Below, in pieces: positions 1 through 14,813 of a stretch of DNA of 64,000 nucleotides. Each line of letters opens with the position of its first letter. The first letter of the stretch is position 1. A program made the translations under genes and the position numbers. Below the pieces are notes generated by a model. That model saw only the letters and a program-made list of their open reading frames with translations. It did not search any database and was not told the origin of the DNA. Origin of the DNA: an uncultured bacterium (GTDB lineage: Bacteria; Krumholzibacteriota; Krumholzibacteriia; LZORAL124-64-63); the NCBI GenBank assembly GCA_963732385.1, contig CAVSZB010000001.1, forward strand, positions 1 to 64,000, given 5' to 3'.

Positions 1-149
1 CCGGTGCAAAACTCCCCAGAAGCGCCGAAGTAAAATTCCCCACCCGAGAGATCAAGTGGTGAGGTCCGGCGCCAAGTCGGTCCTTGCCTGAGGGTCATGA
101 GCCCGCCGACCCTCCGCCAGTTGACCCGGTCACTGGCAGGGAGGTCGCG

Positions 150-1412
150 GTGCTCGAACTCGGGGAGATCGTTGTGATCCAACAACTCAAGGACGAGGGA
201 TTGACGATCGTGGCCATTGCCCAGCGCACCGGCCAGGACCGCAAGACCGTCCGCAAGTATCTCAAGCTGGGTCTGCAGGTGCCGGCCTACGGGCCGCGGG
301 CGCCTCGGCCCAGCCTGCTGGACCCGTTCAAGGACTACGTGAGCAGCAGGCTGACAGAATATCCGGCCCTTCGGGCCAGCCGTCTGCTGCGCGAGATCAG
401 GGAGCTCGGTTATCCCGGCGGCTACACCACCGTCAAGGACTTCGTGCTGACCGTGCGGCCACTCAGGGAGCAAGGTTACGAGCATCGCTTCGAGACGCCG
501 CCGGGCAAGCAGGCGCAGGTGGACTTCGCCTGCTTCGACGTGTGCTTCACTTCGGAGCCCGACCAGTGGCGGCGGATCTGGGTGTTCACCATGGTGCTCG
601 GCTACTGCCGTTACCTGTGGGGGCGGTTCGTTCTGAGGCAGGACCTGCCGACGGTCATCCGCCTGCACCGCGAAGCGTTCGCCGCCCTGGGCGGCGTGCC
701 CAGTCAGATCCTCTACGACCGCATGAAGACCGCCGTGATCGGCGAGCCGGACGATGGCCACATCGTCTACAACGGCCGCCTGCTGGACATGGCCAACCAC
801 TACGGCTTCGTGCCGAAGGCCTGCGCCGCCTATCGGGCCAAGACCAAGGGCAAGGTCGAGCGGCCGAACGGCTACATCCGCGATGACTTCTTCATGGGCC
901 GCCGGTTCAGCGACCTGGCCGACCTGAACGAGCAGTGGTTCCACTGGCTGACCACCGTCGCCAACGTCCGTTGCCACGGCACCACCGGCCGGATCGTCGT
1001 CGAAGCGTTCGCCGAGGAACAGCCGTTCCTGTTGCCGCTACCGGCGGTCGACTACCACGCGGTGCTGCGAGCCGAACGAAGGATCAGCCGCGATGGCATG
1101 GTCTCGGTCGACGGCAACGAGTACAGCGTGCCGGACACGACCCAAGTTCGGATCGTCGAGGTCCAAGTCACCTGCGACCACGTGCACATCTTGGACGAGG
1201 GTCGGCTGGTGGCCGTCCACGAGATCCTGACTGGCCGTGGACAGCGCGTGGTGGCCGAGGGCCATCGCCACAACCCGCCGCCGGGCAACGCCCGCAACCC
1301 CAGGCAGCGCGCCGCTGTGCCGCCGCAGCCGGGCCAGCAGGTCGGCCGCCGCGACCTGGCGGTCTACCAGCAGGTCGGCGCCGCCCTGGCCGCCCGGGGA
1401 GGTGAGCACTGA
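150..1412 (+). CDS. istA: IS21 transposase IstA (HTH + rve/DDE)
   Basis: Motifs RFETPPGKQAQVDF, LYDRMKT and KTKGKVER. GTG at 150 follows GGAGGT; the ORF track starts at 84. Confidence 0.95.
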   Translation: MLELGEIVVIQQLKDEGLTIVAIAQRTGQDRKTVRKYLKLGLQVPAYGPRAPRPSLLDPFKDYVSSRLTEYPALRASRLLREIRELGYPGGYTTVKDFVLTVRPLREQGYEHRFETPPGKQAQVDFACFDVCFTSEPDQWRRIWVFTMVLGYCRYLWGRFVLRQDLPTVIRLHREAFAALGGVPSQILYDRMKTAVIGEPDDGHIVYNGRLLDMANHYGFVPKACAAYRAKTKGKVERPNGYIRDDFFMGRRFSDLADLNEQWFHWLTTVANVRCHGTTGRIVVEAFAEEQPFLLPLPAVDYHAVLRAERRISRDGMVSVDGNEYSVPDTTQVRIVEVQVTCDHVHILDEGRLVAVHEILTGRGQRVVAEGHRHNPPPGNARNPRQRAAVPPQPGQQVGRRDLAVYQQVGAALAARGGEH

Positions 1413-2272
1413 TGGTCACCGCGAAGCTGCCCATGCCGCCGCTGGAGTCGATCAAGCGCCGACTGGTAGGCCTCAAGATGGCGCGTTCACTGGAAGTGAT
1501 CGACCAGCTCGTCGGCCGCATCGAACAGGGTGAGCTGTCGGCGGTCGAGGCGATCGATCTGCTTCTGGCCGAGGAGTACTCCACCCGTGAGACGCGGCGC
1601 ATCCGCATGGCGATGATGACCGCCCGCCTGGGCACGATCAAAACCCTCGAGAGCTTCGACTTCTCGTTCCAGCCGTCGTTGGATCGCAACCAGATCCTGG
1701 CCTTGGCTGGACTCGGGTTCATCGAGCGCAAAGAGGCGGTCCACTTCCTCGGTCCGCCGGGGACGGGGAAGTCACACTTGGCGATCGCCCTGGCCTACGA
1801 AGCGATCAAGGCGGGCAAGAGTGTCTACCTGGCCACGCTGGCCGAGATCATCGCCTCGCTGACCAAGGCGGAGCGCGAAGGCACTCTCCCACAGAGGATC
1901 CGGTTCCTGACCAGGACGGCGCTGCTGATCATCGACGAGGTTGGCTACCTGCCGCTGGACAAGAGCGGAGTCAACCTGTTCTTCCAGCTGGTGAACGCCC
2001 GCTACGAGAAGGGGGCGATGATCCTGACCAGCAATCGCAGCTTCCAGGAGTGGGGCGAGATCTTCGGCGACAACGTCGTGGCCGCCGCGCTACTGGACCG
2101 GCTGTTGCACCACGCGGTGGTCATCCAGATCGAAGGCAACAGCTACCGGCTGAAGACCCATGCGGCGCTGATGCCGGAAAACCTCAAGGCGGCGATCGCC
2201 GCTCGAGGCGATCCCCACAAGCGGCGGCCGGGCAGGCCGCGGAAGGAGGAAGCCGACTTGCCGGACAGGTGA
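1412..2272 (+). CDS. istB: IS21 helper AAA+ ATPase IstB
   Basis: Walker A GPPGTGKS, LLIIDEVGY, LDRLLHH..GNSYR; TGATG overlap with istA. Confidence 0.95.
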   Translation: MVTAKLPMPPLESIKRRLVGLKMARSLEVIDQLVGRIEQGELSAVEAIDLLLAEEYSTRETRRIRMAMMTARLGTIKTLESFDFSFQPSLDRNQILALAGLGFIERKEAVHFLGPPGTGKSHLAIALAYEAIKAGKSVYLATLAEIIASLTKAEREGTLPQRIRFLTRTALLIIDEVGYLPLDKSGVNLFFQLVNARYEKGAMILTSNRSFQEWGEIFGDNVVAAALLDRLLHHAVVIQIEGNSYRLKTHAALMPENLKAAIAARGDPHKRRPGRPRKEEADLPDR

Positions 2273-2362
2273 CCGGACCAGAAATCAAGGGGTGGGGAAT
2301 TTTACTTCGGCGGAAATGGGGAGAATTAAACCGGCGTTGACAGGGACACTGCTTCTGCGTTC

Positions 2363-2460
2363 ACCGAACCAGCGGATGCAGCAGAATCGGCGCCTCGCGA
2401 GGTAGACGCGGGTAGCGCCGGATCGCAGGCGCCTCGCAGCTGAACCGCAACACGTCAGGC
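2363..2460 (+). other. attC site 1 (degenerate)
   Basis: R''-like ACCGAAC followed by CAGCGGATGCAGC...GCAGCTGAACCGCAACAC and R'-like GTCAGGC; imperfect palindrome directly before an RBS and ORF. Confidence 0.7.
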
Positions 2461-2501
2461 AGTGACCGAATCTATTCACGCCCATAAGGAGATGTTCTGC
2501 A

Positions 2502-3248
2502 TTGGATATTCCACGGATCTTCAACATCACCGAAAGTGCTCACCGCATCCATAACCCGTTCACACCCGAAAAGCTCGCCACTCTCGGCGCGGCGCTGCGT
2601 CTGGAAACGGGCACCCGAGTGCTCGACCTCGGCAGCGGTTCGGGCGAGATGCTGTGCACCTGGGCACGCGATTACGGAGTCATCGGCACCGGCATCGACA
2701 TGAGCCAGTTGTTCACCGAGCAAGCGAAACTCCGCGCTGAAAAACTCGGTGTCGCCGATCAAGTCAAGTTCATCCATGGCGATGCTGCCGGCTTCGTTTC
2801 TGACGAGAAGGCCGGTGTGGCAGCCTGTCTCGGTGCCTCGTGGATCGCTGGGGGAGTCGTCGGTACCATCGAGCTTCTGGCGCAGAGCCTCCGCCCCGGA
2901 GGGATCATTCTCATCGGCGAGCCATACTGGCGGCAGTTACCGCCGACGGAAGATGTTGCCAGGGAGTGTCATGCCGGCTCAATCTCCGACTTTCTCCTGC
3001 TTCCGGAACTTCTCGCGTCTTTCGGCCACCTCGGCTACGACGTCGTGGAAATGATTTTGGCGGACCAAGACAGCTGGGACAGATACGAGGCGGCCAAGTG
3101 GCTCACCATGCGCCGATGGCTTGAAGACAATCCTGACGACGAGTTCGCGAAAGATGTTCGAGCCAAACTAACCTCGGAACCCGAGCGCTACGCCGCTTAC
3201 GCGCGTGAACACCTGGGCTGGGGCGTGTTCGCGCTGATGACGCGGTGA
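2502..3248 (+). CDS. Class I SAM-dependent methyltransferase, YjhP-like (gene cassette)
   Basis: VLDLGSGSGEM SAM motif; N-terminus MDIPRIFNITESAHRIHNP resembles YjhP; flanked by attC sites. Confidence 0.85.
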   Translation: MDIPRIFNITESAHRIHNPFTPEKLATLGAALRLETGTRVLDLGSGSGEMLCTWARDYGVIGTGIDMSQLFTEQAKLRAEKLGVADQVKFIHGDAAGFVSDEKAGVAACLGASWIAGGVVGTIELLAQSLRPGGIILIGEPYWRQLPPTEDVARECHAGSISDFLLLPELLASFGHLGYDVVEMILADQDSWDRYEAAKWLTMRRWLEDNPDDEFAKDVRAKLTSEPERYAAYAREHLGWGVFALMTR

Positions 3249-3294
3249 TGAGGGGATTACCGGGCGACTCAGAAAGTGGGGAAAATCCAATCAT

Positions 3295-3354
3295 GCCTAG
3301 CAACTCATTTAAGCCGACGCCGCTTCGCGGCGCGGCATAATTCAGGCGTCAGGC
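3295..3354 (+). other. attC site 2 (60-bp, aadA/Xanthomonas-type)
   Basis: GCCTAGC AACTCATTTAAGCCGACGCCGCTTCGCGGCGCGGCATAATTCAGGC GTCAGGC closely resembles classic 59-base elements. Confidence 0.92.
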
Positions 3355-3379
3355 ATCACCCGCCGGAGGACCTCAAGAG

Positions 3380-3631
3380 ATGTCCCAAATCACCGCAACC
3401 AGCGTCTCGGTAGGGGTATGTCGCGTAGTCCACATGCCGTCAGGTGCGGAAATCCAAACAAGCACTCCGACTGAATTCGGTGGTGCTGGAGATTCGTTTT
3501 CAGCGACCGATCTTCTGGCTGCGGCACTTGGTGTATGCATTGCTACCAACGTAGAGGTAATTGCTGAGCGACATGGCGTCCCTGACCTGACTTTGCCACA
3601 GTTTGGGAGTGGCGGGGAAGGGATTGGGTAG
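3380..3631 (+). pseudogene. OsmC-family protein, 3'-truncated cassette
   Basis: FGGAGDSFSATDLLAAALGVC motif; the family resemblance ends abruptly near 3580; no second Cys region and no attC follow. Confidence 0.65.
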
Positions 3632-3720
3632 AGGGGGGTGAGTCTATTCATCCCGGGCGCCTTCCGCTATAATTCCCCTCGCCTTCGAACGACGAACCTT
3701 CCACAAAGGACGGTCCGGCC

Positions 3721-4875
3721 GTGTCCACAAAAGCGGTTCTGTACATAATCCTGATGGTCAACGCGGTGTGTCTGGCCGTCCTGTCCGGCTGCGGCGACGA
3801 AGCCGGGCCGGGGACCGGGACGCTTGCGATCGACATCGAACCGGACGACTGTCCGCTCAACTGGGCCCTTTCCGGCGCCGGCACCCTCATCGAGGGGACG
3901 GGCGACCGGAGCCTCGGCGGGATGCCGGCCGGCCTGGAATACACGCTCACCGTCGTTCATGAGCCCGGCTGGGCCGCGAGCGATCCCCTCACCCAGAGCG
4001 CCTGGGTGCGGGCGAATGAGGTCAGCGAAATCCAGGTCGGGTTCCAGCCCCTTGAGCTGGGCGCCTTCGTCGAGGTCCCGGCCGGCACCTTCACCATGGG
4101 CTCGCCCGAAGAGCAGGCGGAATCCTACTGGGACGAGCGCCCGCAGCACCAGGTGACCTTCACGCGCCCCCTGCTGGTGAAGGCCACCGCGGTAACGCAG
4201 CACGAGTACTACGCCATTACCAACCAACGGCCGAGCCGGCACCACGACTGCGACGAATGCCCCGTCGAAGGCCTCGACTTGCGGGAGGCGCTCACCTTCT
4301 GCAACCTGCTGTCGGTCTGGGACGGTCTGCAGCCGCCCTACACCCTCGAAAACGACGCTGTCATCTGCGACTGGACCGCCAGCGGCTACCGTCTTCCCAC
4401 TGAGTCGGAATGGGAATATTTCTGCCGTGCCGGAACCACCACCCGGTTCAGCTTCGGGGACGACAGCATCGATCTGAACGACTACGCCTGGTATGGGGAC
4501 AATTCGGGGGAAATGACGCACCCGGTCGGGACGAGGCAGCCCAATGCCTGGGGGCTGTACGACAATCACGGCAACGTCTACGAGATGACCTGGGACGGGT
4601 ACCAATGGTACCCCGAGGAGCCGGTCACCGACCCCCGGCGCGACCCCAGCAACGAACTGCGGATGGCCCGCGGCGGCGACTTCCACTGGGGGTGGATCTA
4701 CGCCACCTCCTCCTGGCGGGCCACCTACACCAACGTCGATAAACTGCCCAACCTCGGGCTTCGGGTGGTCCGCTATGCCGACGGGGAGGCGGGGGCGAAG
4801 CGGGCGGCCGGCCGCGGCTCCGGGGCCGGATTGTCGATCGACGGCGACAAGGGGATCGGGAGCGCAGCGAGGTGA
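3721..4875 (+). CDS. Lipoprotein with formylglycine-generating enzyme (FGE-sulfatase/SUMF1-like) domain
   Basis: Lipobox LSGC; motifs PAGTFTMGS, YRLPTESEWEY, PNAWGLYDNHGNVYE and GLRVVR. Confidence 0.9.
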   Translation: MSTKAVLYIILMVNAVCLAVLSGCGDEAGPGTGTLAIDIEPDDCPLNWALSGAGTLIEGTGDRSLGGMPAGLEYTLTVVHEPGWAASDPLTQSAWVRANEVSEIQVGFQPLELGAFVEVPAGTFTMGSPEEQAESYWDERPQHQVTFTRPLLVKATAVTQHEYYAITNQRPSRHHDCDECPVEGLDLREALTFCNLLSVWDGLQPPYTLENDAVICDWTASGYRLPTESEWEYFCRAGTTTRFSFGDDSIDLNDYAWYGDNSGEMTHPVGTRQPNAWGLYDNHGNVYEMTWDGYQWYPEEPVTDPRRDPSNELRMARGGDFHWGWIYATSSWRATYTNVDKLPNLGLRVVRYADGEAGAKRAAGRGSGAGLSIDGDKGIGSAAR

Positions 4876-5061
4876 TGGTGCAATTGCCGGCGGCCGGGGA
4901 TCTGCGAAATCTACAGCCGGACCGCGTCCTGACAGCTGCAGCGTGGGTCCCGGGACCGCACGCAGCAGGCTTGGCATGTGTTTGCGGCAGTTGTGGGGAC
5001 CGTCTGGCATGCCATGGCGAATCGTGGACGCTGAAGCCTGGCTGGCACGCGATTGAACTAG

Positions 5062-5108
5062 TCGGGCGCGCCACGCGTCTTTGCAGGTGAAGCCAGCGAT
5101 CGCCAGCC
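5062..5108 (+). other. attC remnant 3 (right half only)
   Basis: GCGCGCCA...TTGCAGGTGAAGCC...GCCAGCC resembles the right arms of the sites at 5606 and 12823. GCCAGCC is two changes from GTTAGCC, the complement of the downstream R'' GGCTAAC. Confidence 0.45.
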
Positions 5109-5168
5109 GAGAGGAATATAAAAATCAAAAACCCAGTAGTTGGTCTAATCCTTTGGATAGTAGTCTCT

Positions 5169-5588
5169 ATGGCTGCAGGCTGGGTCGGATCCAGATTCAT
5201 GCCAGGGGAGTGGTACGCGTCGCTCGCGAAGCCAAGCTGGAATCCTCCGAGTTCAGTGTTCGCTCCCGTGTGGTCGACCCTATACATTCTCATGGGTGTT
5301 GCCGCGTGGCTGGTTTGGCGGAAGGTCGGTTTCACCGGCGCGCCAGTAATTCTGGGGCTGTTCATTGTACAGTTGGGCCTAAACTCGCTGTGGTCATACC
5401 TCTTCTTTGGCGTTCACCAGCCTGGGCTCGCTTTCATCGAAATAGTCATTCTCTGGTTGGTAATCCTGATTATCGCAATAGGGTTCTGGCGCGTTTCAGT
5501 TCTCGCGGGAGTACTGCTGTTGCCGTATCTGTGCTGGGTCGGTTTTGCCAGTGTGCTCAACTTTCAGCTGTGGCGGCTGAACTCGTAA
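5169..5588 (+). CDS. tspO: TspO/MBR tryptophan-rich sensory protein (gene cassette)
   Basis: WYASLAKPSWNPP, VWSTLY, LNSLWSYLFFG and PYLCWVGFA motifs; the frame extends upstream to ATA at 5118. Confidence 0.92.
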   Translation: MAAGWVGSRFMPGEWYASLAKPSWNPPSSVFAPVWSTLYILMGVAAWLVWRKVGFTGAPVILGLFIVQLGLNSLWSYLFFGVHQPGLAFIEIVILWLVILIIAIGFWRVSVLAGVLLLPYLCWVGFASVLNFQLWRLNS

Positions 5589-5605
5589 ATGAATGGTGCG
5601 TGGCA

Positions 5606-5702
5606 GGCTAACAAGTGCTTCCAGCCGAAGAAGCCGCTTGTCACGCTCCGTGCGGGGCACGGGCCGCGCCAACCGACATCGCAGATGAAGCCAACGTAAT
5701 CT
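5606..5702 (+). other. attC site 4
   Basis: GGCTAAC AAGTGCTTCCAGCCGA...TCGCAGATGAAGCCAAC GTAATCT. Confidence 0.8.
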
Positions 5703-5717
5703 AGATGAGGACTGGCA

Positions 5718-6251
5718 GTGATGCGGCCGTTGTTGATACTCGATTTGGATGAAACGTTGATCCATGCGGTAGAGGTTCCGTTGGCCCACGACGCATCGTT
5801 CCGCTGTGGCCAATATTTCGTCTACGAGCGCCCCTTCGTGCGCGAGTTCTGCAATTCTTGTTCGCGCTACTACGACTTGGCTGTGTGGACGAGTTCTACA
5901 GCAGATTATGCGCAGTGCGTGGTGGAGCACATCATGGACGGCGGCCAAACGGCGTTTCTGTGGGTTCGAGACCAATGCACTCGGCGTTATGATCCTGAAG
6001 CGAAAGAGCACTACTGGGTCAAGGATCTAAGGAAGGTGAAGCGCTCCGGCTACGACTTGAAACGAGTTCTTGTTGTCGATGACACAAGACAGAAGCTGGA
6101 GAGAAACTACGGCAATCTAATTCTTGTGAGCGAATTCAATGGCGACCCACAAGACCGAGAACTCGATCAGTTGTCAGGGTACCTGGGGGGCATCGTCGGG
6201 GTAGAAGACTTGCGCGCCATCGAGAAGCAGGGGTGGCGAGCGACCAGATAA
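5718..6251 (+). CDS. HAD-superfamily NIF/FCP1-like phosphatase (gene cassette)
   Basis: DLDETL motif I, VYERP, WTSS, VKDL and VVDD motifs. Confidence 0.9.
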   Translation: MMRPLLILDLDETLIHAVEVPLAHDASFRCGQYFVYERPFVREFCNSCSRYYDLAVWTSSTADYAQCVVEHIMDGGQTAFLWVRDQCTRRYDPEAKEHYWVKDLRKVKRSGYDLKRVLVVDDTRQKLERNYGNLILVSEFNGDPQDRELDQLSGYLGGIVGVEDLRAIEKQGWRATR

Positions 6252-6345
6252 CAGAGCGTTGGAGCAGGCGGATCGGCCTTTTCGCGCCCCTGGCTTGCGC
6301 CAGGGTCGCGCCAAGTTCTCCCGCTGCTCAACGCTGGCGGTATCC
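6246..6345 (+). other. attC site 5
   Basis: AGATAAC AGAGCGTTGGAGCAGGCGG...CCGCTGCTCAACGCTGGC GGTATCC; strong stem; the ORF stop codon lies in R''. Confidence 0.85.
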
Positions 6346-6451
6346 GCGGGCAGCGATATGAACTGCCTTTGAAGCAGGTCGCGACCTGGGAATGGGCGAG
6401 AAAGGAGGATTGCATTTCGCATCATCACACCAAAAAGGAAGGAGTACTGTC

Positions 6452-8014
6452 ATGACCAGACCGGCTGCCAATCGAGTATCCCTTGCTCTGTGTATTCTAA
6501 TCGGATTGTGGGCCCAGGTCGCCTGGGGGCAAACCACCGTGGAAGGCTATTGCGACACGGTCGACGAGGAGGGGAACCTCGTCAGCAACATGTTCACCGT
6601 GACATCAACCGCCATGGACGGTCGGGCGCTGATCGAAGCTCCCTGGACGACCGTGATCGACAACGGACCCTACGCCAATCGGATCGACATCGTAAGCCTG
6701 AGCGAGGGTTATGCGGTCGGTGATTTGGAGATGTATGCCGCGCACGTGGATTCGCTGTTCGGATTTATTTTCGATTTCGAGCCGTTCAGGACGTATCGGC
6801 ATTTCTTCAATTTGCACCGTGTCGATGTGGTGTCCAACGAATCAGGGGTCGACAACGATCCCCTGGGCGTCGAGAAGGACACGGCCCTGGACATGGATGT
6901 CGCGTGCAACTGGCTTTACGGCGAGACCTGCTTCAACATCAACAATGCCTATGGGTATGCCGCCAACGTCGATTATTGGGACAAGATAATGATCTTGGTG
7001 AATACGAACGACCAGACGGGCGTGGGCTTAGGCGATTTAATCGTGTTGCCCATGGCCAGTGTATATAATGATGATCACGCAACGCTCGCCATACATGAAC
7101 TGGGTCATAGTGTGGGGGGGCTTAGCGATGAGACCGCCCTGGCCGGCAGAACGTTCGTGGGCAACTGGCCCGTTGAGGCGGTGAACATTTCCATTTGGGA
7201 CGCCGTGGAAATGGCTGAAAGCGGGGAGAAATGGGCGCGCTGGTTGGGCGTGGACGATCCCGACTTCTGTGGGCTGGTGGACGCCTACGAAGGCGCTCTA
7301 TGGTATCAGTACGGAGTCTACCGCCCCACCGAATATTCGATGATGCGGAGGCCGACCTACCCCTTCAATCATCCTTCGGTCGAAGGCCTGATCAATCGTT
7401 TCTATACGACGGTCAGGCCCATCGATTTCGCCACCCCGGATGACACGGATCTGACCGGTGGCGAGACCGTCTTCGTGGAACCGGTGCCACTGGTCGGCCA
7501 CGCCATGGATGTGCAATGGTTTCTCGACGACGAGCCCCTGCCCGGGGCTACGGCGGGCACGCTGGACCTGAGCACGTTGGCGCTGGCGGACGGGGTATAT
7601 GGCCTGTCGGTCGAGGTGGTCGACAACACGCCCTGGGTGCGCGATCCCGACATTCGCGAAACGGCTCTGACCGATAGTCGCAAGTGGCAGGTCCATGTCA
7701 AGAACGACAAACTGGCCAAGGACGCTCTCGCCGGTGGCGATCGCTTGCAGGCGGCCAACTACCCCAATCCCTTCAACCCCCGTACGATTATCCGCTTCTA
7801 CCTGCCGCAGGCCGGGCGTGTGGACGTGCGGATTTTCGACCTGAGCGGCAAGGCCGTGCGCAAGCTGGCGACCGACGCGATGGAGGCTGGCTACCACGAG
7901 CTTCTCTGGGACGGCCGCGACGACCAGGGCCGGTCCGTGGTCTCGGGCCACTACTGCTACCGTCTGAGCGACGGTAAGCAGGTCATCACTGAACGGATGG
8001 TTCTGCTGCGGTAG
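6452..8014 (+). CDS. Secreted M64-family (IgA peptidase-like) metallopeptidase with C-terminal FlgD-Ig/T9SS-like domain
   Basis: Signal peptide; HELGHSVGGLSDE; YRPTEYSMMR; C-terminal NYPNPFNP...WDGRDDQGRSVVSG. Confidence 0.85.
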   Translation: MTRPAANRVSLALCILIGLWAQVAWGQTTVEGYCDTVDEEGNLVSNMFTVTSTAMDGRALIEAPWTTVIDNGPYANRIDIVSLSEGYAVGDLEMYAAHVDSLFGFIFDFEPFRTYRHFFNLHRVDVVSNESGVDNDPLGVEKDTALDMDVACNWLYGETCFNINNAYGYAANVDYWDKIMILVNTNDQTGVGLGDLIVLPMASVYNDDHATLAIHELGHSVGGLSDETALAGRTFVGNWPVEAVNISIWDAVEMAESGEKWARWLGVDDPDFCGLVDAYEGALWYQYGVYRPTEYSMMRRPTYPFNHPSVEGLINRFYTTVRPIDFATPDDTDLTGGETVFVEPVPLVGHAMDVQWFLDDEPLPGATAGTLDLSTLALADGVYGLSVEVVDNTPWVRDPDIRETALTDSRKWQVHVKNDKLAKDALAGGDRLQAANYPNPFNPRTIIRFYLPQAGRVDVRIFDLSGKAVRKLATDAMEAGYHELLWDGRDDQGRSVVSGHYCYRLSDGKQVITERMVLLR

Positions 8015-8420
8015 AATTCGAAGCAGGCGCTGGGGTCGGCCAGTCGGGATTGGCCATTTGCGGCATTGCCTGTCGCGGCCGACCTCCATGCCGTTCAGAC
8101 CAGGAGACATCGCCGCGACCGCCGGCTGACGGGATGTCATGTGATCGCGTGAGGAGCATCCTCGGTAGAGGGCTAGGTTGCTGAAAGCCGGCATTTCGGG
8201 CCCTTTCCCAGGGCTTCCGCGACATTGCCGGCAGGGAGTTTGGAGCAACGGCGACTTTACATATTGCCACCACGCCGCGAGCCACATCACAAGGAAACAC
8301 ACAATGTTCTCGTCTTGGCTACTTGATGCAGGCCATTTTGTTTGCTAAGCCATAGCAAATTAGTATCCTATACGCCCTACAGGATATCTATCACAGACAT
8401 GCCCCACAGGAGTCACCCTC

Positions 8421-11027
8421 ATGCCCGGCTTAAAACAAGCGCGCCTGTTTCTCCTATATTGGGCTCTTTGGGCCAGTTCCTCGGCGGTCGCCGCCGAGCC
8501 GGCGGCGGTAGTGCCCCCCCAGCTGGCGGGTGCACTGGCGGCCGATGGCACATTGCTGCCCGGGATCTCGGGCAGCTTCGACGCCAGCGGCTGGAGCCTG
8601 GACACGACGGCCCAGGGACCGCCGCGATTCGTGCCGGCGCAGCCCATCGACAAGGCCGGCTGCGGTGACGGCTGGGACGACCGGTTCACGATGCGCGGCA
8701 CGATCGGCAGCGTGAAGGCGGTTGCTGTCGTGGGAGATACTGTATATCTCGGCGGTCAATTCACGGTCGCCGGCGGCCCCATCAGCTATCTCGCGCGCTG
8801 GGACGGCACGGGGTTTTCAGCCGTTGGTACTGGCGTGAACAACGGCGTACTGGCGTTCGCCGTCGACGGCGCGGACCTCTACGCCGCGGGGTACCTCACG
8901 GAGGCCGGCGGCTTGCCGGCTCGTGGAATCGCGCGCTGGGACGGGACGAACTGGTCGGCGCTCGGCACAGGCATGAACGCCGGCACCATCAACGCGCTCG
9001 CCGTGTGGAACGGCGACTTGTATGCCGCCGGAACATTCACGACCGCTGGAGGCGTGGCCGCCGCCCGGGTCGCGCGCTGGGACGGGACCAGCTGGTGGCC
9101 CGTCGGAGACGGCCTGAACAATTCGGTCTGGGCATTGGCCGCGGATGCGACGGGACTTTACGCCGGCGGCTCATTCACGGCCTCGGGTGCCGTGGCGATC
9201 AATCGTATCGCGCGCTGGGACGGCGTGGCCTGGGCTCCCCTGGGCGCCGGAGTGGACAACATCGTCAGCGCACTGGCCGCGCAGGGCGGCAATCTGTACG
9301 CCACGGGCGGGTTCACCACGGCCGGAGGTGCCCCGGCCAGTCGCATCGCGCGCTGGGATGGCAGCACCTGGTCGGCGCTGGGCGCGGGCCTGAACAACGG
9401 CGGGCGTGGGCTGGCCTTTCTCGGCGGCGATCTTTATGTGGGGGGCGCCTTCACCAGCGCCGGCGGCGTGTCCGCGCCGCTGATCGCGCGCTGGGACGGT
9501 GTGGCCTGGTCCGACGTCGACGGCGGCATGAGTGGTACGGGTGCGCCCACAGTTGACGCGCTGACCCTGTTGCCGGATGGCCTGGGCGGCGGCAGCATCT
9601 TCGCCGGCGGCACGTTCAGGCGCGGCGGTTCGGTCAGCGCCCTGAACGTCGCCCGCTGGGATGGGACCGCCTGGTTTCCGCTGGGCGACGGCCAGGCACC
9701 GGATGACCGAGTCTTGTCACTGGCCCTGGGCACCGACGCCGAGGGTGGCAAGGTCGTGTACGCGGGCGGGAGCTTCCTGCAGGCCGGAAGTGAGCAGGCC
9801 AAGTACGTCGCCGCCTGGGATGTCGATGCCGGCACCTGGCGGACGTTGGGCACCGGTGTCAACGGCGCCGTGCGCACCGTCGCCGCCAACGGCACCGACC
9901 TCTATGTGGGCGGGACCTTCACCATTGCCGGGATCTACCAGGCCTACTATGTCGCGCGTTGGGACGGCACGGCCTGGACGCGCCTGGGAATCGGTACCAA
10001 TGGCCAGGTGGAAGTCCTTCAACTGTGCCCGAACGGCGCGGGCGGCTACGACCTGTATGCCGGCGGCAACTTCACCCGCGCCGGCGGCGTCACCGTCAAT
10101 CGCCTCGCGAAGTGGGACGGCACGGCATGGTCCGCGCTCGGCACTGGCTTCAATAATTGGGTTGAGGCGATCGCCTTCGCCGACAACGGCGCCGGCGGCT
10201 ACGACGTGTACGCCGGCGGCCAGTTCACCACCGCCGGAGACGTACCGGCCAACCGCATCGCGAAATGGGACGGCACAGCCTGGTCCCCCCTGGGCAGTGG
10301 CCTCGCCGAAGTGACGGGCACCGGCTTCCCTGCCGTGGTGGAGGAGTTGCTCGTCTCGAACGACGGTGCCGGCGGGTTGGTGCTCTATGCCGGCGGCCTG
10401 TTCACCGAAGCGGGCGGCCTGCGCGTCGGCCATATCGCGAAATGGGACGGGACGAGTTGGTCGGCCCTCGGCAGCGGCCTCGACTGGAGCGTCCACGCCA
10501 TGGATATGCGGGACGGTGCCCTGCACGTCGGCGGGGCCTTCCTGAACGCAGGCGGCATGCCGGCGGCGGGCATCGCCACGTGGGACGGAACCACCTGGTC
10601 GCCTCTCGGCGACGGACTCACCCCCGGCATCGACATGCTCATTTTCGACGGCGACGACATGTACGTCGGCGGCATCAACACCCGAGCCGGCTGCACGCCT
10701 TCGTACTTCTTTGGTCGCCAGAGGCGCGGGATGATCTCCGGAATCGGTTCCGACCTGCCCGCCGCGGACGTCGCACTGGCCCAGAACGCGCCCAATCCGT
10801 TCAATCCGCTGACCGAGATCTCTTTCCGGTTGGAACGCAGTTCGCACGCCACATTGCGTGTGTACGATACGCGGGGCCGCGTAGTGGCCACGCTGGTCGA
10901 CGGTGCGTTGGCGGCCGGTGATCACCGCGTGAGCTTCAGCGCGCGCGGGCTGGCCAGCGGACTCTACATGTACCGGCTGGAAGCCGGCGGAGTCGTTGAG
11001 TCGCGTAAAATGATGCTGGTGCGGTGA
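8421..11027 (+). CDS. Secreted repeat protein, probable double beta-propeller, with C-terminal T9SS-like domain
   Basis: 13 repeats of [IVL]A[RK]WDG..W..LG.G....V.A....LY.GG.F; C-terminal QNAPNPFNP...KMMLVR. Confidence 0.85.
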   Translation: MPGLKQARLFLLYWALWASSSAVAAEPAAVVPPQLAGALAADGTLLPGISGSFDASGWSLDTTAQGPPRFVPAQPIDKAGCGDGWDDRFTMRGTIGSVKAVAVVGDTVYLGGQFTVAGGPISYLARWDGTGFSAVGTGVNNGVLAFAVDGADLYAAGYLTEAGGLPARGIARWDGTNWSALGTGMNAGTINALAVWNGDLYAAGTFTTAGGVAAARVARWDGTSWWPVGDGLNNSVWALAADATGLYAGGSFTASGAVAINRIARWDGVAWAPLGAGVDNIVSALAAQGGNLYATGGFTTAGGAPASRIARWDGSTWSALGAGLNNGGRGLAFLGGDLYVGGAFTSAGGVSAPLIARWDGVAWSDVDGGMSGTGAPTVDALTLLPDGLGGGSIFAGGTFRRGGSVSALNVARWDGTAWFPLGDGQAPDDRVLSLALGTDAEGGKVVYAGGSFLQAGSEQAKYVAAWDVDAGTWRTLGTGVNGAVRTVAANGTDLYVGGTFTIAGIYQAYYVARWDGTAWTRLGIGTNGQVEVLQLCPNGAGGYDLYAGGNFTRAGGVTVNRLAKWDGTAWSALGTGFNNWVEAIAFADNGAGGYDVYAGGQFTTAGDVPANRIAKWDGTAWSPLGSGLAEVTGTGFPAVVEELLVSNDGAGGLVLYAGGLFTEAGGLRVGHIAKWDGTSWSALGSGLDWSVHAMDMRDGALHVGGAFLNAGGMPAAGIATWDGTTWSPLGDGLTPGIDMLIFDGDDMYVGGINTRAGCTPSYFFGRQRRGMISGIGSDLPAADVALAQNAPNPFNPLTEISFRLERSSHATLRVYDTRGRVVATLVDGALAAGDHRVSFSARGLASGLYMYRLEAGGVVESRKMMLVR

Positions 11028-11832
11028 GGATCGGGCAGCTGGCGGCGCGGCTGCTGCTCGATGGCTGCGCCAGGTCTGGTCGCGTCCGCGGAGGAGGGGG
11101 TGACGCCCCCCCTTGTCCGCTTCGCCCCTGCCCGCCCGCGCGGACGATCCCGGTTCCCATCCGATCCTGAGGTTCGAGCCGGTCGGCGACGACACGTTGA
11201 CAGCCGATCTTCATGAACCAGTTCCAAGCCCGGGGGGCTATACGGTTCCCGCAGGCAGCCTGCAGCCGGCCATCGACGTCGAGACCATTTCCCAGGGACA
11301 GATCGAGGACGGTTACCGGCCGTCGGCGACAGCAGGGGCTGCCGGCGGCCGCTAGATCGCCCGTGTAGGATCCTGCAATGGGGCCGGAGAGATTGCAGTG
11401 GCAAGACTCGAGTGCTACGCTCGAATCTTCCACGGGAACGAGCGATCCCGCATGGCTAACCGCGCACTCCCGTGCCTGCGGCTTTGGCCCAGATCATCCC
11501 GGGAAACGCCCGGCCCGGAGTCGCCGGTTCTCGTGGGGAGCGGTGCAAGGCCATGTCGGAGGGCGGGGAATTGCGCCAGCTGTTCTCCGCAGCATATACT
11601 AGTACGCAGGCCAGCGTATCTGGATACGAAGGCCGTGATAATTGGAGTTACAAGGGCCGCGGCGGTGGTCAGGCAGTTCGAAAAAGGCTTTGACCCTGTT
11701 TTGGTTTGGATTTGTTGTTCAGGGCGAGGTGACTCGGCGGCACGCGACACGGTGACAAGCCGCCTATCGCTCACGCGCTAGGCGGACGCCCGGCAGGCCT
11801 TGTTGGCCGAGTCAGAGGCGCGGAGGTTGTCC

Positions 11833-11925
11833 TCGTAACAGGCTGCTGCAGCGGACATGCCCGCGTCACTCCGCTTGCAGGGCAAGCGTCGCTCCGCGAG
11901 CCTGCCGCTGAGCCGCGCGTTAGAT
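11833..11925 (+). other. attC site 6
   Basis: TCGTAAC AGGCTGCTGCAGCGGAC...CCGCTGAGCCGCGC GTTAGAT; the only site with an intact GTTRRRY. Confidence 0.85.
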
Positions 11926-11941
11926 ACACAGAGGAGCAGGT

Positions 11942-12817
11942 ATGTCCAAGTTACTACATCCACTATTGGGCGCAGTCCTCGTGCTGTTTTGGGGCTGCTC
12001 TTCATCGGATGGGCCTACAGAACCTCAGGATCCAGGTCAGGGCGCCGTTTCAATCGTAGTGGAGCCGAGTTTTTTGTCGCCGTCCTGGACTCTGACGGGT
12101 CGAGACAGCGTCCTGGCAACAGGAGTCGGAGCTGCGACTATCCAAGGTATCCCAGTTCAGACTTGCACCCTCACCTGGGAGCCGGTAAGCGGTTGGGCTC
12201 CACAGGGTGATAACCCAATTGTGTTCGGCGTAGTCAAAGATGATACCGTTAGCGTCGAGGCTGTCTATGGTGCGCCGTTTGCGGATTCCCCAGACCAGGC
12301 CGTGGAGAATCTGCGCACAGCGTATGTCTTTATGCGTATCGAGTTTCTCCAGAGTGTCGTCGCACCAGGCTATCTGTCGTTTCTGCAGGTATGTACCCAA
12401 GATCAATTTGTATACGTAGGAGCCACGCTTGATGCCGATGAAGAATTGATGTCGGCGGAACACATTTTTGGTGGCCAGCCAATCACAAACTCGAACGGGA
12501 CTTTGGTGCCGGGAGTATCGAGCATACAATTCCCGGTGCTAAATCGCGTTAGTGACTGGGAAGTTGCTGGCCCGGGGGAACGCCTGCCAGGTGCTTTCGC
12601 ATCGACCTACGAGGTCGCAATCGATCTAAACCGCCCAGGCGATAGTACTCTTACGTCTGCGGGCGAGATTCGATTCTTCGCGGTCTCTAGTGATAGTCTC
12701 GTCGCGGGCGAGGTATGGCAACACTGGAAGTTGATTGGGCAGGACGACATGACTGATATTACCAAGCGGGCGATAGAATCCGTCGCCTGGGGTTCTTTGC
12801 GGGCACTCTTTCTGTAG
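11942..12817 (+). CDS. Hypothetical lipoprotein (gene cassette) with WGSLRALF C-terminal tail
   Basis: GAGGAG RBS; FWGC lipobox; lower GC than the host genes; flanked by attC sites. Confidence 0.8.
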   Translation: MSKLLHPLLGAVLVLFWGCSSSDGPTEPQDPGQGAVSIVVEPSFLSPSWTLTGRDSVLATGVGAATIQGIPVQTCTLTWEPVSGWAPQGDNPIVFGVVKDDTVSVEAVYGAPFADSPDQAVENLRTAYVFMRIEFLQSVVAPGYLSFLQVCTQDQFVYVGATLDADEELMSAEHIFGGQPITNSNGTLVPGVSSIQFPVLNRVSDWEVAGPGERLPGAFASTYEVAIDLNRPGDSTLTSAGEIRFFAVSSDSLVAGEVWQHWKLIGQDDMTDITKRAIESVAWGSLRALFL

Positions 12818-12822
12818 GCGGC

Positions 12823-12931
12823 ATCCAAGAAGCGCCTGAACCTGAATATTCGCTTTGTAACTCGCCGCGCAGAGCACGGCTCGCGCCAATCAGCTTCGCC
12901 CAGCGCTTTGCGGGTGATGCCATCGTGAGGC
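12823..12931 (+). other. attC site 7 (degenerate)
   Basis: ATCCAAG AAGCGCCTGAACCTGA...GCTCGCGCCAA...GCGGGTGATGCCATC GTGAGGC. Confidence 0.65.
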
Positions 12932-13491
12932 TCAGACAACTCGGAGCGCGCACGTCACTCCGCCGACGGGATCTTCTAGCGTTCGTTTTGGCGCAGGCCT
13001 GGTTAACTGCGGCCAGCCCCAGCTTGGCTGCCGCCGAACCTCCCTGCAGTAGGGACCTAAGTCGATCGCATGTGGTGGTAACCGTGAGGTTCTTCGACGG
13101 CTGGACGCGGCCCGTCTTTGGAGCGTTGGATGGCCGCGGCAATCTGAAGATCGTCGGAGCGTACTCGGACACAACAAGTATATTCGCATCGATCGATCCG
13201 GACTCGGCGGTGGCGGCGGTCGATAGGCTGTTGGCGCTGGACTTCTATGGGCAACCCGAGGTATTCGAAACGGGACGCCTCCGTGTGGGGACTTATGGTC
13301 CCGATTCAGTGATGGTCACGCAGGAAACCACGCTCGACGGAGGTTCCGCGACAATTGAACTCATTCTCGGCCCCCGTCGTCACCGCGTAGAACTTCGTTA
13401 CCCGGCCTACGGTGCGCCGCAAGCACTTAGGGATTGGGTGCACGAATTTCGCGGATTGGTGAAGAAGTATGCAGGCTGGGCACTGCACTAG
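12925..13491 (+). CDS. Hypothetical secreted protein (gene cassette)
   Basis: Hydrophobic signal-like N-terminus; stop abuts R'' GCCTAAC; start codon uncertain. Confidence 0.6.
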   Translation: MRLRQLGARTSLRRRDLLAFVLAQAWLTAASPSLAAAEPPCSRDLSRSHVVVTVRFFDGWTRPVFGALDGRGNLKIVGAYSDTTSIFASIDPDSAVAAVDRLLALDFYGQPEVFETGRLRVGTYGPDSVMVTQETTLDGGSATIELILGPRRHRVELRYPAYGAPQALRDWVHEFRGLVKKYAGWALH

Positions 13492-13589
13492 CCTAACCAG
13501 TGCTTGAAGCAGACGGTCGCGCCCGTCATGTCGCTTGCTGGCGCAAGCGCTGTGCCGGCCGCGCCCGCTGCTGAAGCGCGGCGTCCGGC
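13491..13589 (+). other. attC site 8
   Basis: GCCTAAC CAGTGCTTGAAGCAGACGG...CCGCTGCTGAAGCGCGGC GTCCGGC. Confidence 0.88.
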
Positions 13590-13625
13590 CAAGAGGTGAA
13601 TCCTGGACTTGGCTGGAGGTGAAGC

Positions 13626-13998
13626 ATGTCAAGATATATGCTCGTTGTAGTGGGTATGGCAATGCTTGCCTGCGGTGGCTGCAGCCGTCGCCAGCTGGTT
13701 GACGTAACGGCCGAGGCCTATCGTCGGGCGGGATGAGATTCGAAAGTGGTTTGAAATGGCTCTCCAGGCACCCAACTTAATCTACTCATTTATACCTGCG
13801 GTGATCGAGGTAGCGGTGAGTGGCGACTTGGCGTACGACCGTGGCACATATGAACTCAGCATGGACACGCCGCAAGGCCGAATCAGCGATCATGGCAAGT
13901 ACATGGCGGTGTGGAAGAAGACAGCCGAGGGATGGAAGGTGGTCGCAGACATCATGAACAGCGACCTCCCAGCGCCAGCCACTGAGCCTGGAACGTAA
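13626..13998 (+). pseudogene. DUF4440/SnoaL-like (NTF2 fold) lipoprotein with internal deletion and frameshift
   Basis: GGAGGT RBS, then MSRYMLVVVGMAMLACGGC; frame changes near 13718 into PIVGRDEIRKWF...GKYMAVWKK...WKVVADIMNSD. Confidence 0.75.
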
Positions 13999-13999
13999 G

Positions 14000-14473
14000 A
14001 CGGCATCGATTTTCTCGTCATTCTGGTCGCTGCGGCCGGCTGTAGCCGGTCGCCGAGTCGTCCGGTTGTCGCCGATGGGCCTGATGCGCAGGCGGTGACG
14101 AATCTCGTGGCCGAGTTCGACCGGTGCGCCAGGGAACAGGATCTGGAGACGTTTCTGACGTATTGCGCAGACGATGTCGTTTCGCTGGCCCCGAATGAGC
14201 CTGCCATCGTCGGCAAGGACGCCATGCGGGAGTTCTACCGCGGTCTCTACGATGTCTTCGAAATGCGAATGACGCACCACCCCGGAGAGCCCCACGTGTA
14301 TGGGAACCTTCTCATTGCATCGTGGCAATGCCACGGGGACGATGACGCCGAAGGCGGGCGGGGATCCCATGAGCTTCGACAACAAGTACGTGTTCATCCT
14401 GCTGCGCGCAGATGATGGTTCACTGAGCGTTTGGCGGGCTGCTTTCAACGCTGGCGCCCTGCCGCCTACGTAG
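14000..14473 (+). pseudogene. Second DUF4440/SnoaL-like lipoprotein; start lost, frameshift near 14320
   Basis: LVAAAGC lipobox with no start codon; PNEPAIVGKDAMREFY; continues in another frame as GNATGTMTPKAGG...NKYVFIL...WRAAFN. Confidence 0.7.
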
Positions 14474-14495
14474 GCGGCAACTCCAGGGAGGCCCC

Positions 14496-14813
14496 ATGCA
14501 CTATCTGCTCTTCTATGATGTCACGGCCGACTATCTGACGCGGCGGGCTGAATTCCGGGAGGAGCATCTCGGGCTGGCCTGGCAGGCGCAGGCCCGGGGC
14601 GAGCTCATCCTGGGCGGGGCCCTGGCCGATCCGGTCGACACCGCGATCCTGCTGTTCGAGGGCGAGTCGCCGGCGGTCGTGGAGCAGTTCGTGGCGGCCG
14701 ATCCGTACGTGAAGAACGGACTGATCGCGCGCTGGCGCATCCGACCGTGGACCACGGTTGTCGGCGAGGCGGCGACGGCGCCGGTCAGGCCGGGGCAGTC
14801 CGGCCGTCAATAG
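14496..14813 (+). CDS. YciI-like protein
   Basis: RRAEFREEHL, GGALADP and FVAADPYVKNGL motifs. Confidence 0.9.
   Translation: MHYLLFYDVTADYLTRRAEFREEHLGLAWQAQARGELILGGALADPVDTAILLFEGESPAVVEQFVAADPYVKNGLIARWRIRPWTTVVGEAATAPVRPGQSGRQ

Follow-up and report, generated by a model that had tools for sequence, protein, structure and literature searches.

Mutated crossover triplets in a relic integron cassette array from an uncultured Krumholzibacteriota bacterium

Introduction

Why would nearly every attC site of an integron cassette array lose the GTT triplet of its crossover box, if several of those sites and their genes are otherwise well kept? This question is raised by an array near the start of contig C1 (CAVSZB010000001.1) from the genome of an uncultured member of the Krumholzibacteriota (GCA_963732385.1, or G000; 3.8 Mb in nine contigs). 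The window, which is the whole stretch of DNA that was analyzed, is the first 64 kb (64,000 nucleotides) of this contig. The eight attC sites of the array, A to H, are all on the + strand at 2363–13589. How a cassette loses its mobility and becomes a chromosomal gene is poorly documented outside of clinical class 1 integrons.

A preliminary description, made from the sequence alone, suggested that damage to these sites is concentrated on the recombination core, as expected if only excision-proof cassettes survive an integrase acting in trans. We find that the changes are concentrated on the two T's of the triplet and that the array is, securely, an immobile relic. That a trans-acting integrase filtered it, either by survivorship or by selection, is the explanation that we favor, with a probability of about 45%.

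Results

Seven of the eight attC sites lack GTT

We delineated the sites with a covariance model, R1 (97 positions, 26 pairs), which was built from 30 canonical attC sites: eight from the genome's other array, on contig C3, and 22 from the relatives G007, G008, G016, G019, and G037. A scan for pairing was too noisy without AAC and GTT anchors, so it was used only with the anchors, to choose these seeds. R1 was run unfiltered over the whole window and gave 34 matches at E ≤ 10. Beyond the eight sites (Table 1), the other 26 matches were opposite-strand echoes or had E > 0.8. Sites D, E, F, and H score 66–71 bits, B and G score 27–28 bits, and A and C match only marginally. The inverted-repeat hairpin of an attC site was recognized through the match to R1, again marginally for A and C. 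Folding energies of the bottom strands are -18.2 kcal/mol for B, -34.2 for E, and -38.6 for H. Rfam had no matching attC family; its only match, to a riboswitch on the reverse strand of E, was below threshold.

Just one site (F) has GTT at its R' box, and five (A, D, E, F, and H) have AAC at R''; the R'' core of B, C, and G is AGC, GGC, and AAG, respectively. We refer to the bases of the R' triplet as G1, T2, and T3. G1 is kept in all eight sites, and five of the seven altered triplets are changed at T3 (GTC three times, GTA, and GTG). The preliminary description had reported eight R' heptamers, seven of them without GTT, and an R'' box of ATCCAAG with a broken AAC in site G. All of these are present in the sequence as it reported. 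It had read the R' box of site C as GCCAGCC at 5102–5108; homology and spacing instead give GATCGCC at 5098–5104, and the site is non-GTT in either register. Its list also missed a ninth R' box, GTTACAA (11647–11653), which has no attC body upstream.

The octamer GCGATCGC (window 5096–5103) covers the homologous R' position of site C, and a 4-base insertion at 5096–5103 would reconcile the two registers. We also considered a compensatory change of R'' and R' in this site and rejected it, as it rests on the GCCAGCC register, which homology disfavors.

The window sites are homologues of canonical families from C3 and from relatives. Site F is 95% identical to C3:2308–2400; B shares 87% identity with a canonical site in G037 (TCCTAAC...GTTGGGC); and D is 85% identical to canonical sites in G007, with 4 of 68 body columns changed, plus T3 to A. 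Site E is 84% identical to G008:C12:3956–4055, with T2 changed to G, and H is 79% identical to a canonical site, with 4 of 50 body columns changed, plus T3 to C. Sites C and G align with the family of C3:3237–3334. By this alignment, about 33 central bases of C are deleted, and family alignments fix the R' box of G. In site A, 19 of 47 family-conserved body columns are changed.

Table 1. Features of the array and its surroundings. Positions are in the window unless a contig is named. The R' box is followed by its first position. IS, insertion sequence; ORF, open reading frame; aa, amino acids; GC, G+C content; SAM, S-adenosylmethionine.
Feature	Position	Strand	Score, boxes, or evidence
IS21-family IS	1–2340	+	Pfam rve/Mu-transposase C-terminal and IstB_IS21; terminal repeats
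istA; istB	84–1412; 1412–2272	+	genes of the IS21-family element
attC A, heavily decayed	2363–2460	+	9.5 bits, E 7.9; R'' ACCGAAC, R' GTCAGGC (2454)
Cassette 1, SAM-dependent methyltransferase	2502–3248	+	intact, TTG start; Pfam Methyltransf_31/25/11
attC B, 60-base type	3295–3354	+	28.1 bits, E 1e-5; R'' GCCTAGC, R' GTCAGGC (3348)
Truncated OsmC-like gene, 83 aa	3380–3631	+	Pfam OsmC profile positions 1–34 of 100 only
Non-cassette higher-GC insert with FGE-sulfatase-domain gene (3721–4875)	3600–5039	+	GC, Pfam
attC C	5040–5108	+	12.3 bits, E 1.1; R'' GGCTGGC
Cassette 3, TspO/MBR gene	5169–5588	+	Pfam TspO_MBR positions 2–145 of 145, read from 5118
attC D, well-kept body	5606–5702	+	70.5 bits; R'' GGCTAAC, R' GTAATCT (5696)
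Cassette 4, NIF-type phosphatase, full length	5718–6251	+	Pfam NIF positions 2–160 of 160
attC E, well-kept body	6246–6345	+	68.3 bits; R'' AGATAAC, R' GGTATCC (6339)
M64 peptidase (6392–8014) and beta-propeller protein (8421–11027)	6392–11027	+	Pfam
ORF-less 272-base cassette	11647–11925	+	orphan R' GTTACAA (11647–11653) to attC F
attC F	11833–11925	+	70.7 bits; R'' TCGTAAC, R' GTTAGAT (11919)
Cassette 6, 291-aa ORF	11942–12817	+	no Pfam family
attC G, moderately decayed, with inserted stretch	12823–12931	+	27.2 bits, E 2e-5; R'' ATCCAAG, R' GTGAGGC (12925)
Cassette 7, 188-aa ORF	12925–13491	+	paralogue in C3 array, 74% DNA identity
attC H, last site, well-kept body	13491–13589	+	66.1 bits; R'' GCCTAAC, R' GTCCGGC (13583)
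Tail: DUF4440 fragment (13756–13998), SnoaL-like gene (14095–14415), YCII gene (14496–14813)	13590–14813	+	Pfam
Third relic attC cluster, four sites	C3:103400–107400	+	12–54 bits with R1; GC 0.52–0.62

Sites near an intact integrase keep GTT

The genome has a single intact intI, at C3:7232–8173. It encodes a protein of 328 amino acids with both integrase domains, which scores 469 bits against TIGR02249 (cut-off 265). On the minus strand of C3, intI is followed by a GTTGGGC box and about 10 attC sites in the same direction, up to the contig end, which lies inside a site. A complete integron is found here and not in the window. A GTT-anchored scan found eight complete sites in the C3 array, and all eight read GTT and AAC; a further two are the decayed site at C3:4768–4857 and the one that is cut by the contig end. 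The cassette that ends at site H shares 74% DNA identity with a C3 cassette. As the window sites belong to the same families as the canonical C3 sites, the resident IntI presumably recognizes them and would be able to act on them in trans. For the same reason, a relaxed or altered integrase specificity, which the preliminary description had offered as an alternative, is not needed to account for the window. This IntI is at most about 70% identical to anything that we retrieved.

In this lineage and in several others, intI runs in the same direction as the cassettes, with the array and attI 3' of the gene, as at C3:6860–8173 and at loci L020, L025, L042, L044, L129, L151, and L161. The classical divergent layout, of which this is the reverse, occurs as well, at other loci that the same search returned.

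As a baseline, we used 28 array stretches from relatives, plus C3. These gave 205 R1 matches at E ≤ 0.01, of which 60 were dropped (opposite-strand echoes, one match that is cut by a contig end, and one match to part of the model). The remaining 145 sites include 29 of R1's own seeds; 129 of them have GTT and 122 have AAC. An independent baseline came from 80 loci in other genomes that were chosen solely because they encode a relative of IntI. There, we found 143 R1 matches at E ≤ 0.001, or 142 after one echo was removed, and GTT is present in 141 of these 142 sites. The seven of eight non-GTT sites in the window compare with 16 of 145 in relatives (Fisher p = 5e-6) and with 1 of 142 beside intI (p = 2e-10). 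T3 accounts for five of the seven changes in the window and is changed in 7 of 145 sites in relatives (p = 6e-5). R1 includes the GTT and so favors canonical sites; still, even with their changes, D, E, and H reach the scores of canonical sites. The near-universal GTT beside intI and in the complete C3 sites implies that the triplet is constrained where the system works.

Across the 41 genomes of the class that we searched (G000 counted), 34 have attC sites that match R1 and 18 have an intI that scores above the cut-off. Among metagenomic loci that encode homologues of the NIF cassette, R1 found no attC site in the 33 best of 80 (identity up to 51%), and none of these 33 represents an ancestor of the junctions at D or E.

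Changes are concentrated on the two T's

We asked in three ways if T2 and T3 (TT) had changed more often than the rest of the site. In one test, we used columns with at least 90% conservation across 117 reference sites. Among D, E, F, and H, three of eight TT positions depart from the conserved base, as does 1 of 76 others (p = 0.002). With thresholds of 85% and 80%, the other positions deviate in 9 of 124 and 12 of 136 cases (p = 0.025 and 0.038). The reference sites themselves deviate alike at TT (12/234) and elsewhere (113/2,223).

The second test follows the check that the preliminary description had proposed, which was to align each site to its closest intact homologues. For each of seven sites, the reference was its eight nearest canonical homologues, and only columns in which seven or more of these agree were counted; C was left out because it is too damaged. 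TT was changed at 6 of 14 positions, G1 at 0 of 7, AAC at 2 of 21, and all other conserved columns at 42 of 361. The excess at TT holds against all other conserved columns (p = 0.004), against the other A/T columns (15/103; p = 0.019), and against AAC (p = 0.039). Without site A, it is 5 of 12 versus 22 of 309 (p = 0.0015). The third test allows for how heavily each site is changed overall. For one named pair of columns, the chance of a change in all six of the mutated sites is 1.6e-4, or 0.008 given 50 possible pairs.

Sites D, E, and H have 1, 2, and 4 mismatches, respectively, at 31 other conserved columns (working sites have a median of 1 and a mean of 2.5), so they are otherwise as intact as working sites. 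Sites D, E, F, and H all retain TAAC in R''. Overall, the available tests modestly support a real excess of changes at TT, and composition alone does not explain it. The earlier claim that damage is concentrated on the core is borne out for the two T's and not for the AAC box.

The array is best placed at the far end of an old second integron

In two congeners, DNA that is orthologous to C3:58.6–66.8 kb lies 1.4–1.9 kb from DNA that is orthologous to C1:14.5–15.5 kb. More narrowly, the parts that lie this close together are the counterparts of C3:66.4–66.8 kb and C1:14.5–14.8 kb. The synteny of the window with the congeners begins at about 14486–14790. Between these regions, the congeners have other genes and no more than half an attC (GCTATGT in G002); they have lost almost all attC sequence at this locus. 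In G000, C3:66509–66640 carries an IntI-like fragment of about 40 codons (49% identity, or 19/39, to IntI residues 71–109; 22.7 bits with TIGR02249). On its 3' side (C3:66450–68700; L212:2450–4700) are two low-GC ORFs and a 3' remnant of an attC that ends in GTTGGAC. The region C3:66450–68700 looks like the head of a second, dead integron. The window array is best placed as the far end of that integron, which would have only the 40-codon fragment left of its own integrase. In the congeners, about 58 kb separates the locus from the active integron, and its orientation there is inverted. Because the flanks of the array are on different contigs (C1 and C3), there would have to be a rearrangement between them, or else only the IS21-family element and an assembly gap. 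A direct join of the end of the active C3 array to the start of C1 was considered and rejected: contig ends gave it no support, and synteny favors the second-integron locus.

The array decays while some of its genes are under selection

The short cassette ORFs at 2502–3248, 5169–5588, 5718–6251, 11942–12817, and 12925–13491 are each followed by an attC site, in tandem and on the same strand. As the preliminary description noted, several cassette genes are intact. The ratio of nonsynonymous to synonymous substitution rates is 0.20 for the methyltransferase (versus the copy in G008) and 0.08–0.13 for the 188-aa ORF (versus its C3 paralogue), and both genes are under purifying selection. We saw no excision joints in the array among assembled public contigs, all of low depth and from one study. 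One public contig covers position 6342, in the R' box of site E, and differs from the window solely by A to G there, which does not restore GTT.

Discussion

We propose that the window array is what remains of an old second integron that was cut off on its left by the IS21 insertion and the contig break. Cassettes between cleavable sites would have been excised and lost, or else ectopic recombination with the active array would have been selected against. The survivors would be those bounded by sites with one substitution in T2 or T3 of the R' box. These two bases correspond to the AA beside the cut on the cleaved bottom strand, and a substitution there breaks the pairing with the unchanged AAC of R'', so that cleavage should drop strongly. 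Once locked, the array would decay normally, and some cassette genes would stay under purifying selection. The intact intI and the GTT sites beside it fit this proposal. From sequence and from the analogy with IntI1, we infer that IntI acts in trans, that excision was lost, and that a filter or selection operated.

The closest guide to the effect of these changes is the study of IntI1 cleavage-site mutants by Frumerie and colleagues (2010; PMC2811028). In the results that we draw on from that study, G1 must match between the recombining partners, T2 is tolerant of change, and a T3 change in a single partner is tolerated, so the earlier statement that GTT is required was too strong. With T3 changed in both partners, recombination is 17-fold lower for GTA and about 150-fold lower for GTC, and GTC sites were not cleaved in vitro. 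A non-complementary change in R' only lowers recombination about 370-fold. By analogy, excision from the window array should be strongly reduced, as its R' changes are unmatched in R'' and nearly all pairs of neighboring sites are mutated. The mutants tested for IntI1 resemble the window sites (GTC, GTA, GAT-type, non-complementary to R'', with G1 kept). Unlike the window sites, which are natural and come from an uncultured lineage whose IntI is at most about 70% identical to those retrieved, they were engineered class 1 sites.

Several points weigh against a trans-acting filter. The p-values at TT are modest (0.002–0.04), the sample is eight sites from one metagenome-derived genome, the sequences compared are related and so not independent, and the hypothesis was formed after the pattern was seen. 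The contrast between intact R'' AAC (5/8) and intact R' GTT (1/8) is not significant (p = 0.12), and a simple filter does not explain why R' changes (7/8) outnumber R'' AAC changes (3/8). The tolerance of IntI1 for T2 changes and for single-partner T3 changes also counts against this explanation, and both the activity of the resident IntI and the frequency of excision are predictions from sequence and from IntI1. The physical connection between C1 and C3 is a putative one, placed by synteny. Among 117 strong attC sites of relatives, 10 combine an intact body with a variant triplet (mostly GCT), so variants may not be lethal and may instead be tolerated. A non-GTT box, GTAAGTC, also begins one copy of the methyltransferase cassette in G008, where no intI was detected. 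The eroded array of G001 retains GTTGGGC boxes, and the third relic cluster (on C3) keeps GTT in two of its four sites despite badly decayed bodies. Finally, the locus bears many marks of ordinary decay: the IS21 insertion, the truncated OsmC and DUF4440 genes, two non-cassette inserts (3600–5039 and 6392 to about 11646), the deleted center of attC C, the loss of the attC body before 11647, and the weakened sites A, B, C, and G (9.5–28 bits).

Those marks are what one would expect from plain neutral decay, in which the attC sites of the array came under no constraint after an ancient loss of its integrase, and the changes at TT reflect chance and AT-to-GC pressure. The genome is about 68% GC, and no other conserved part of the site is as AT-rich as the core. 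Of the seven changes at TT, five go to G or C, and conserved A/T columns are changed somewhat more often (13/80) than G/C columns (25/238). The near-complete loss of attC from the locus in congeners and the lack of a significant difference between R' and R'' fit as well. Against this view, TT is changed more often than the other A/T columns are, the R'' TAAC of four sites is untouched, D, E, and H are elsewhere as intact as working sites, and the third relic cluster, which is more decayed, keeps half of its GTT triplets, so decay in this genome is not always TT-first. We consider neutral decay alone to be a serious rival, if somewhat unlikely; we do not put it lower because of the tiny sample, the 10 variant sites in relatives, the GTAAGTC box in the intI-less G008, and the weak contrast of R' with R''. 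It is also improbable that the variant triplets are simply tolerated, by an integrase with relaxed needs at positions 2 and 3, so that the array is still mobile at a reduced rate and its sites are under selection. The behavior of IntI1 (PMC2811028), the conservation of G1 in all eight sites, the intact bodies of D, E, and H, the variant triplets among strong sites of relatives, and the shared GTCAGGC of A and B all accord with tolerance. It is hard to square with the constancy of GTT beside intI (141/142) and in the complete C3 sites (8/8). Furthermore, an R' change that is unmatched in R'' leaves the folded cleavage site mismatched, and excision needs two neighboring sites, nearly all of which are mutated; the 370-fold and 17- to 150-fold reductions for IntI1 apply to these situations (PMC2811028).

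It is quite unlikely that the odd boxes never had TT after the G, that is, that they are junctions with secondary (attG-type) sites or the products of non-integrase rearrangements. The consensus reported for secondary sites of IntI1 is GWT (bioRxiv 10.1101/2022.09.11.507474), which site C would fit as GAT, and two junctions, one after E and one before 11647, do border on foreign inserts. T3, which GWT keeps, is nonetheless the position of five of the seven changes. The R' box of D (GTAATCT) also matches the R'' box of the next cassette (AGATAAC) at six of seven positions, and those of A and B match partners of the GCCTAGC type, which argues that these are point changes in cognate boxes. Errors of assembly or consensus are a concern with any metagenome assembly and are a very improbable source of the altered boxes: the same CGTTA context was read as GTT at all eight complete C3 sites in this assembly, the substitutions differ from one another and are not indels, and the public contig over site E also lacks GTT. 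We rejected two other ideas. Avoidance of the palindrome AACGTT at canonical junctions is contradicted by the C3 array, which keeps AACGTT. Gene conversion from the active array, as a means of renewing the site bodies, is contradicted by sites D, E, and H, which are only 73–85% identical to any site that we found, with the best matches of D and E in other genomes.

In its general form, the trans-acting filter would be a route to cassette fixation: an active integrase filters or selects on orphan arrays so that only cassettes with cleavage-dead sites persist, and the off switch is T3 or, less often, T2, with the hairpin intact. We regard this generalization as somewhat unlikely. If the TT excess does reflect a filter, it would give a sequence signature by which "locked" cassettes might be sought in thousands of genomes; it would predict which single bases turn attC off in vivo; and it would imply a cost of recombination-proficient orphan sites near an active integron. 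If there was only decay, then this is a commonplace relic CALIN (cluster of attC sites lacking an integron integrase).

In its broad features, the array is a CALIN as described by Cury and colleagues (2016; PMC4889954), with at least two tandem attC sites on the same strand, no intI nearby, an IS as neighbor, and an intact IntI elsewhere in the genome. There are six clear attC sites, a search of the genome with TIGR02249 found no match on C1, although just 2.3 kb of the contig precede the first site. CALINs that lie beside an IS in an IntI-encoding genome have been described, and the creation of CALINs by ISs is known (PMC4889954). Unlike the CALINs of that account, the window array has nearly all of its crossover triplets mutated while several site bodies are intact, and by synteny it would come from the end of an old integron, of which intI persists as a fragment, and not from insertion at secondary sites. 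That a poor attC or an IS can stabilize a cassette is also known, from veb1 with IS1999 (PMC3518468); both there and in fused cassettes (PMC4670013), poor or missing attC sites and IS insertions hold cassettes in place. Those cases as reported involve weak attC structure or attC loss and differ from triplet substitutions that are repeated along an array.

The distal, silent parts of sedentary chromosomal arrays are similar in being long same-strand arrays of cassettes, mostly of unknown function, far from the integrase. Sedentary chromosomal arrays generally keep homogeneous, canonical attC sites; the window array, unlike them, has sites of heterogeneous families with mutated cores. In a literature search that covered sources outside subscription journals and supplements, we found no natural array in which single crossover-T substitutions recur at site after site.

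Other features of the array

The left end of the IS21-family element is cut by the start of the contig, which lies about 8 bases inside it, and its right end is 22 bases upstream of attC A. The element is single-copy in the assembly. The end of one public contig coincides exactly with the element's right end, at 2340.

The methyltransferase cassette (2452–3303) is 87% identical to G008:C12:10511–11362 (locus L017), from another genus. This homology ends exactly at R'', after which a different attC follows. In one public sediment run, the contig with this cassette has a depth of about 55, versus about 3 for the surroundings, so the cassette circulates in other contexts. The OsmC-like gene that comes next is cut off by the insert at 3600–5039, which takes the place of the end of the OsmC cassette and part of attC C. 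The TspO_MBR match starts 12 bases upstream of the first ATG of its ORF, and the profile is essentially complete.

The M64 peptidase and the repeated beta-propeller protein are large, secreted, and host-like, and both have a C-terminal tail of the FlgD-Ig/type IX secretion system (T9SS) kind. The covariance model found no attC site after these genes (6392–11027), and they appear to be host-like DNA that was inserted by a non-integrase route. Their GC is 0.62–0.71; that of the array ORFs is 0.56–0.62, versus about 0.68 beyond 15 kb. In the tail (13590–14813), there is no recognizable attC.

The 272-base cassette at 11647–11918, which ends at site F, is the only fully canonical unit in the window array. 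It is 96% and 93% identical to two tandem copies in the active array (C3:2030–2585). The cassette has no evident ORF, its three copies in the genome are 93–96% identical, and Rfam had no match in the window copy.

The 188-aa ORF has its first start codon, a GTG, in the R' box of attC G (12925–12927). The T-to-G change in this box made the codon, so the dead core of this site may have been reused as a candidate start codon. The N-terminus of this ORF is unlike that of its C3 paralogue and, as judged by eye, resembles a twin-arginine translocation (Tat) signal (RRRDLLAF).

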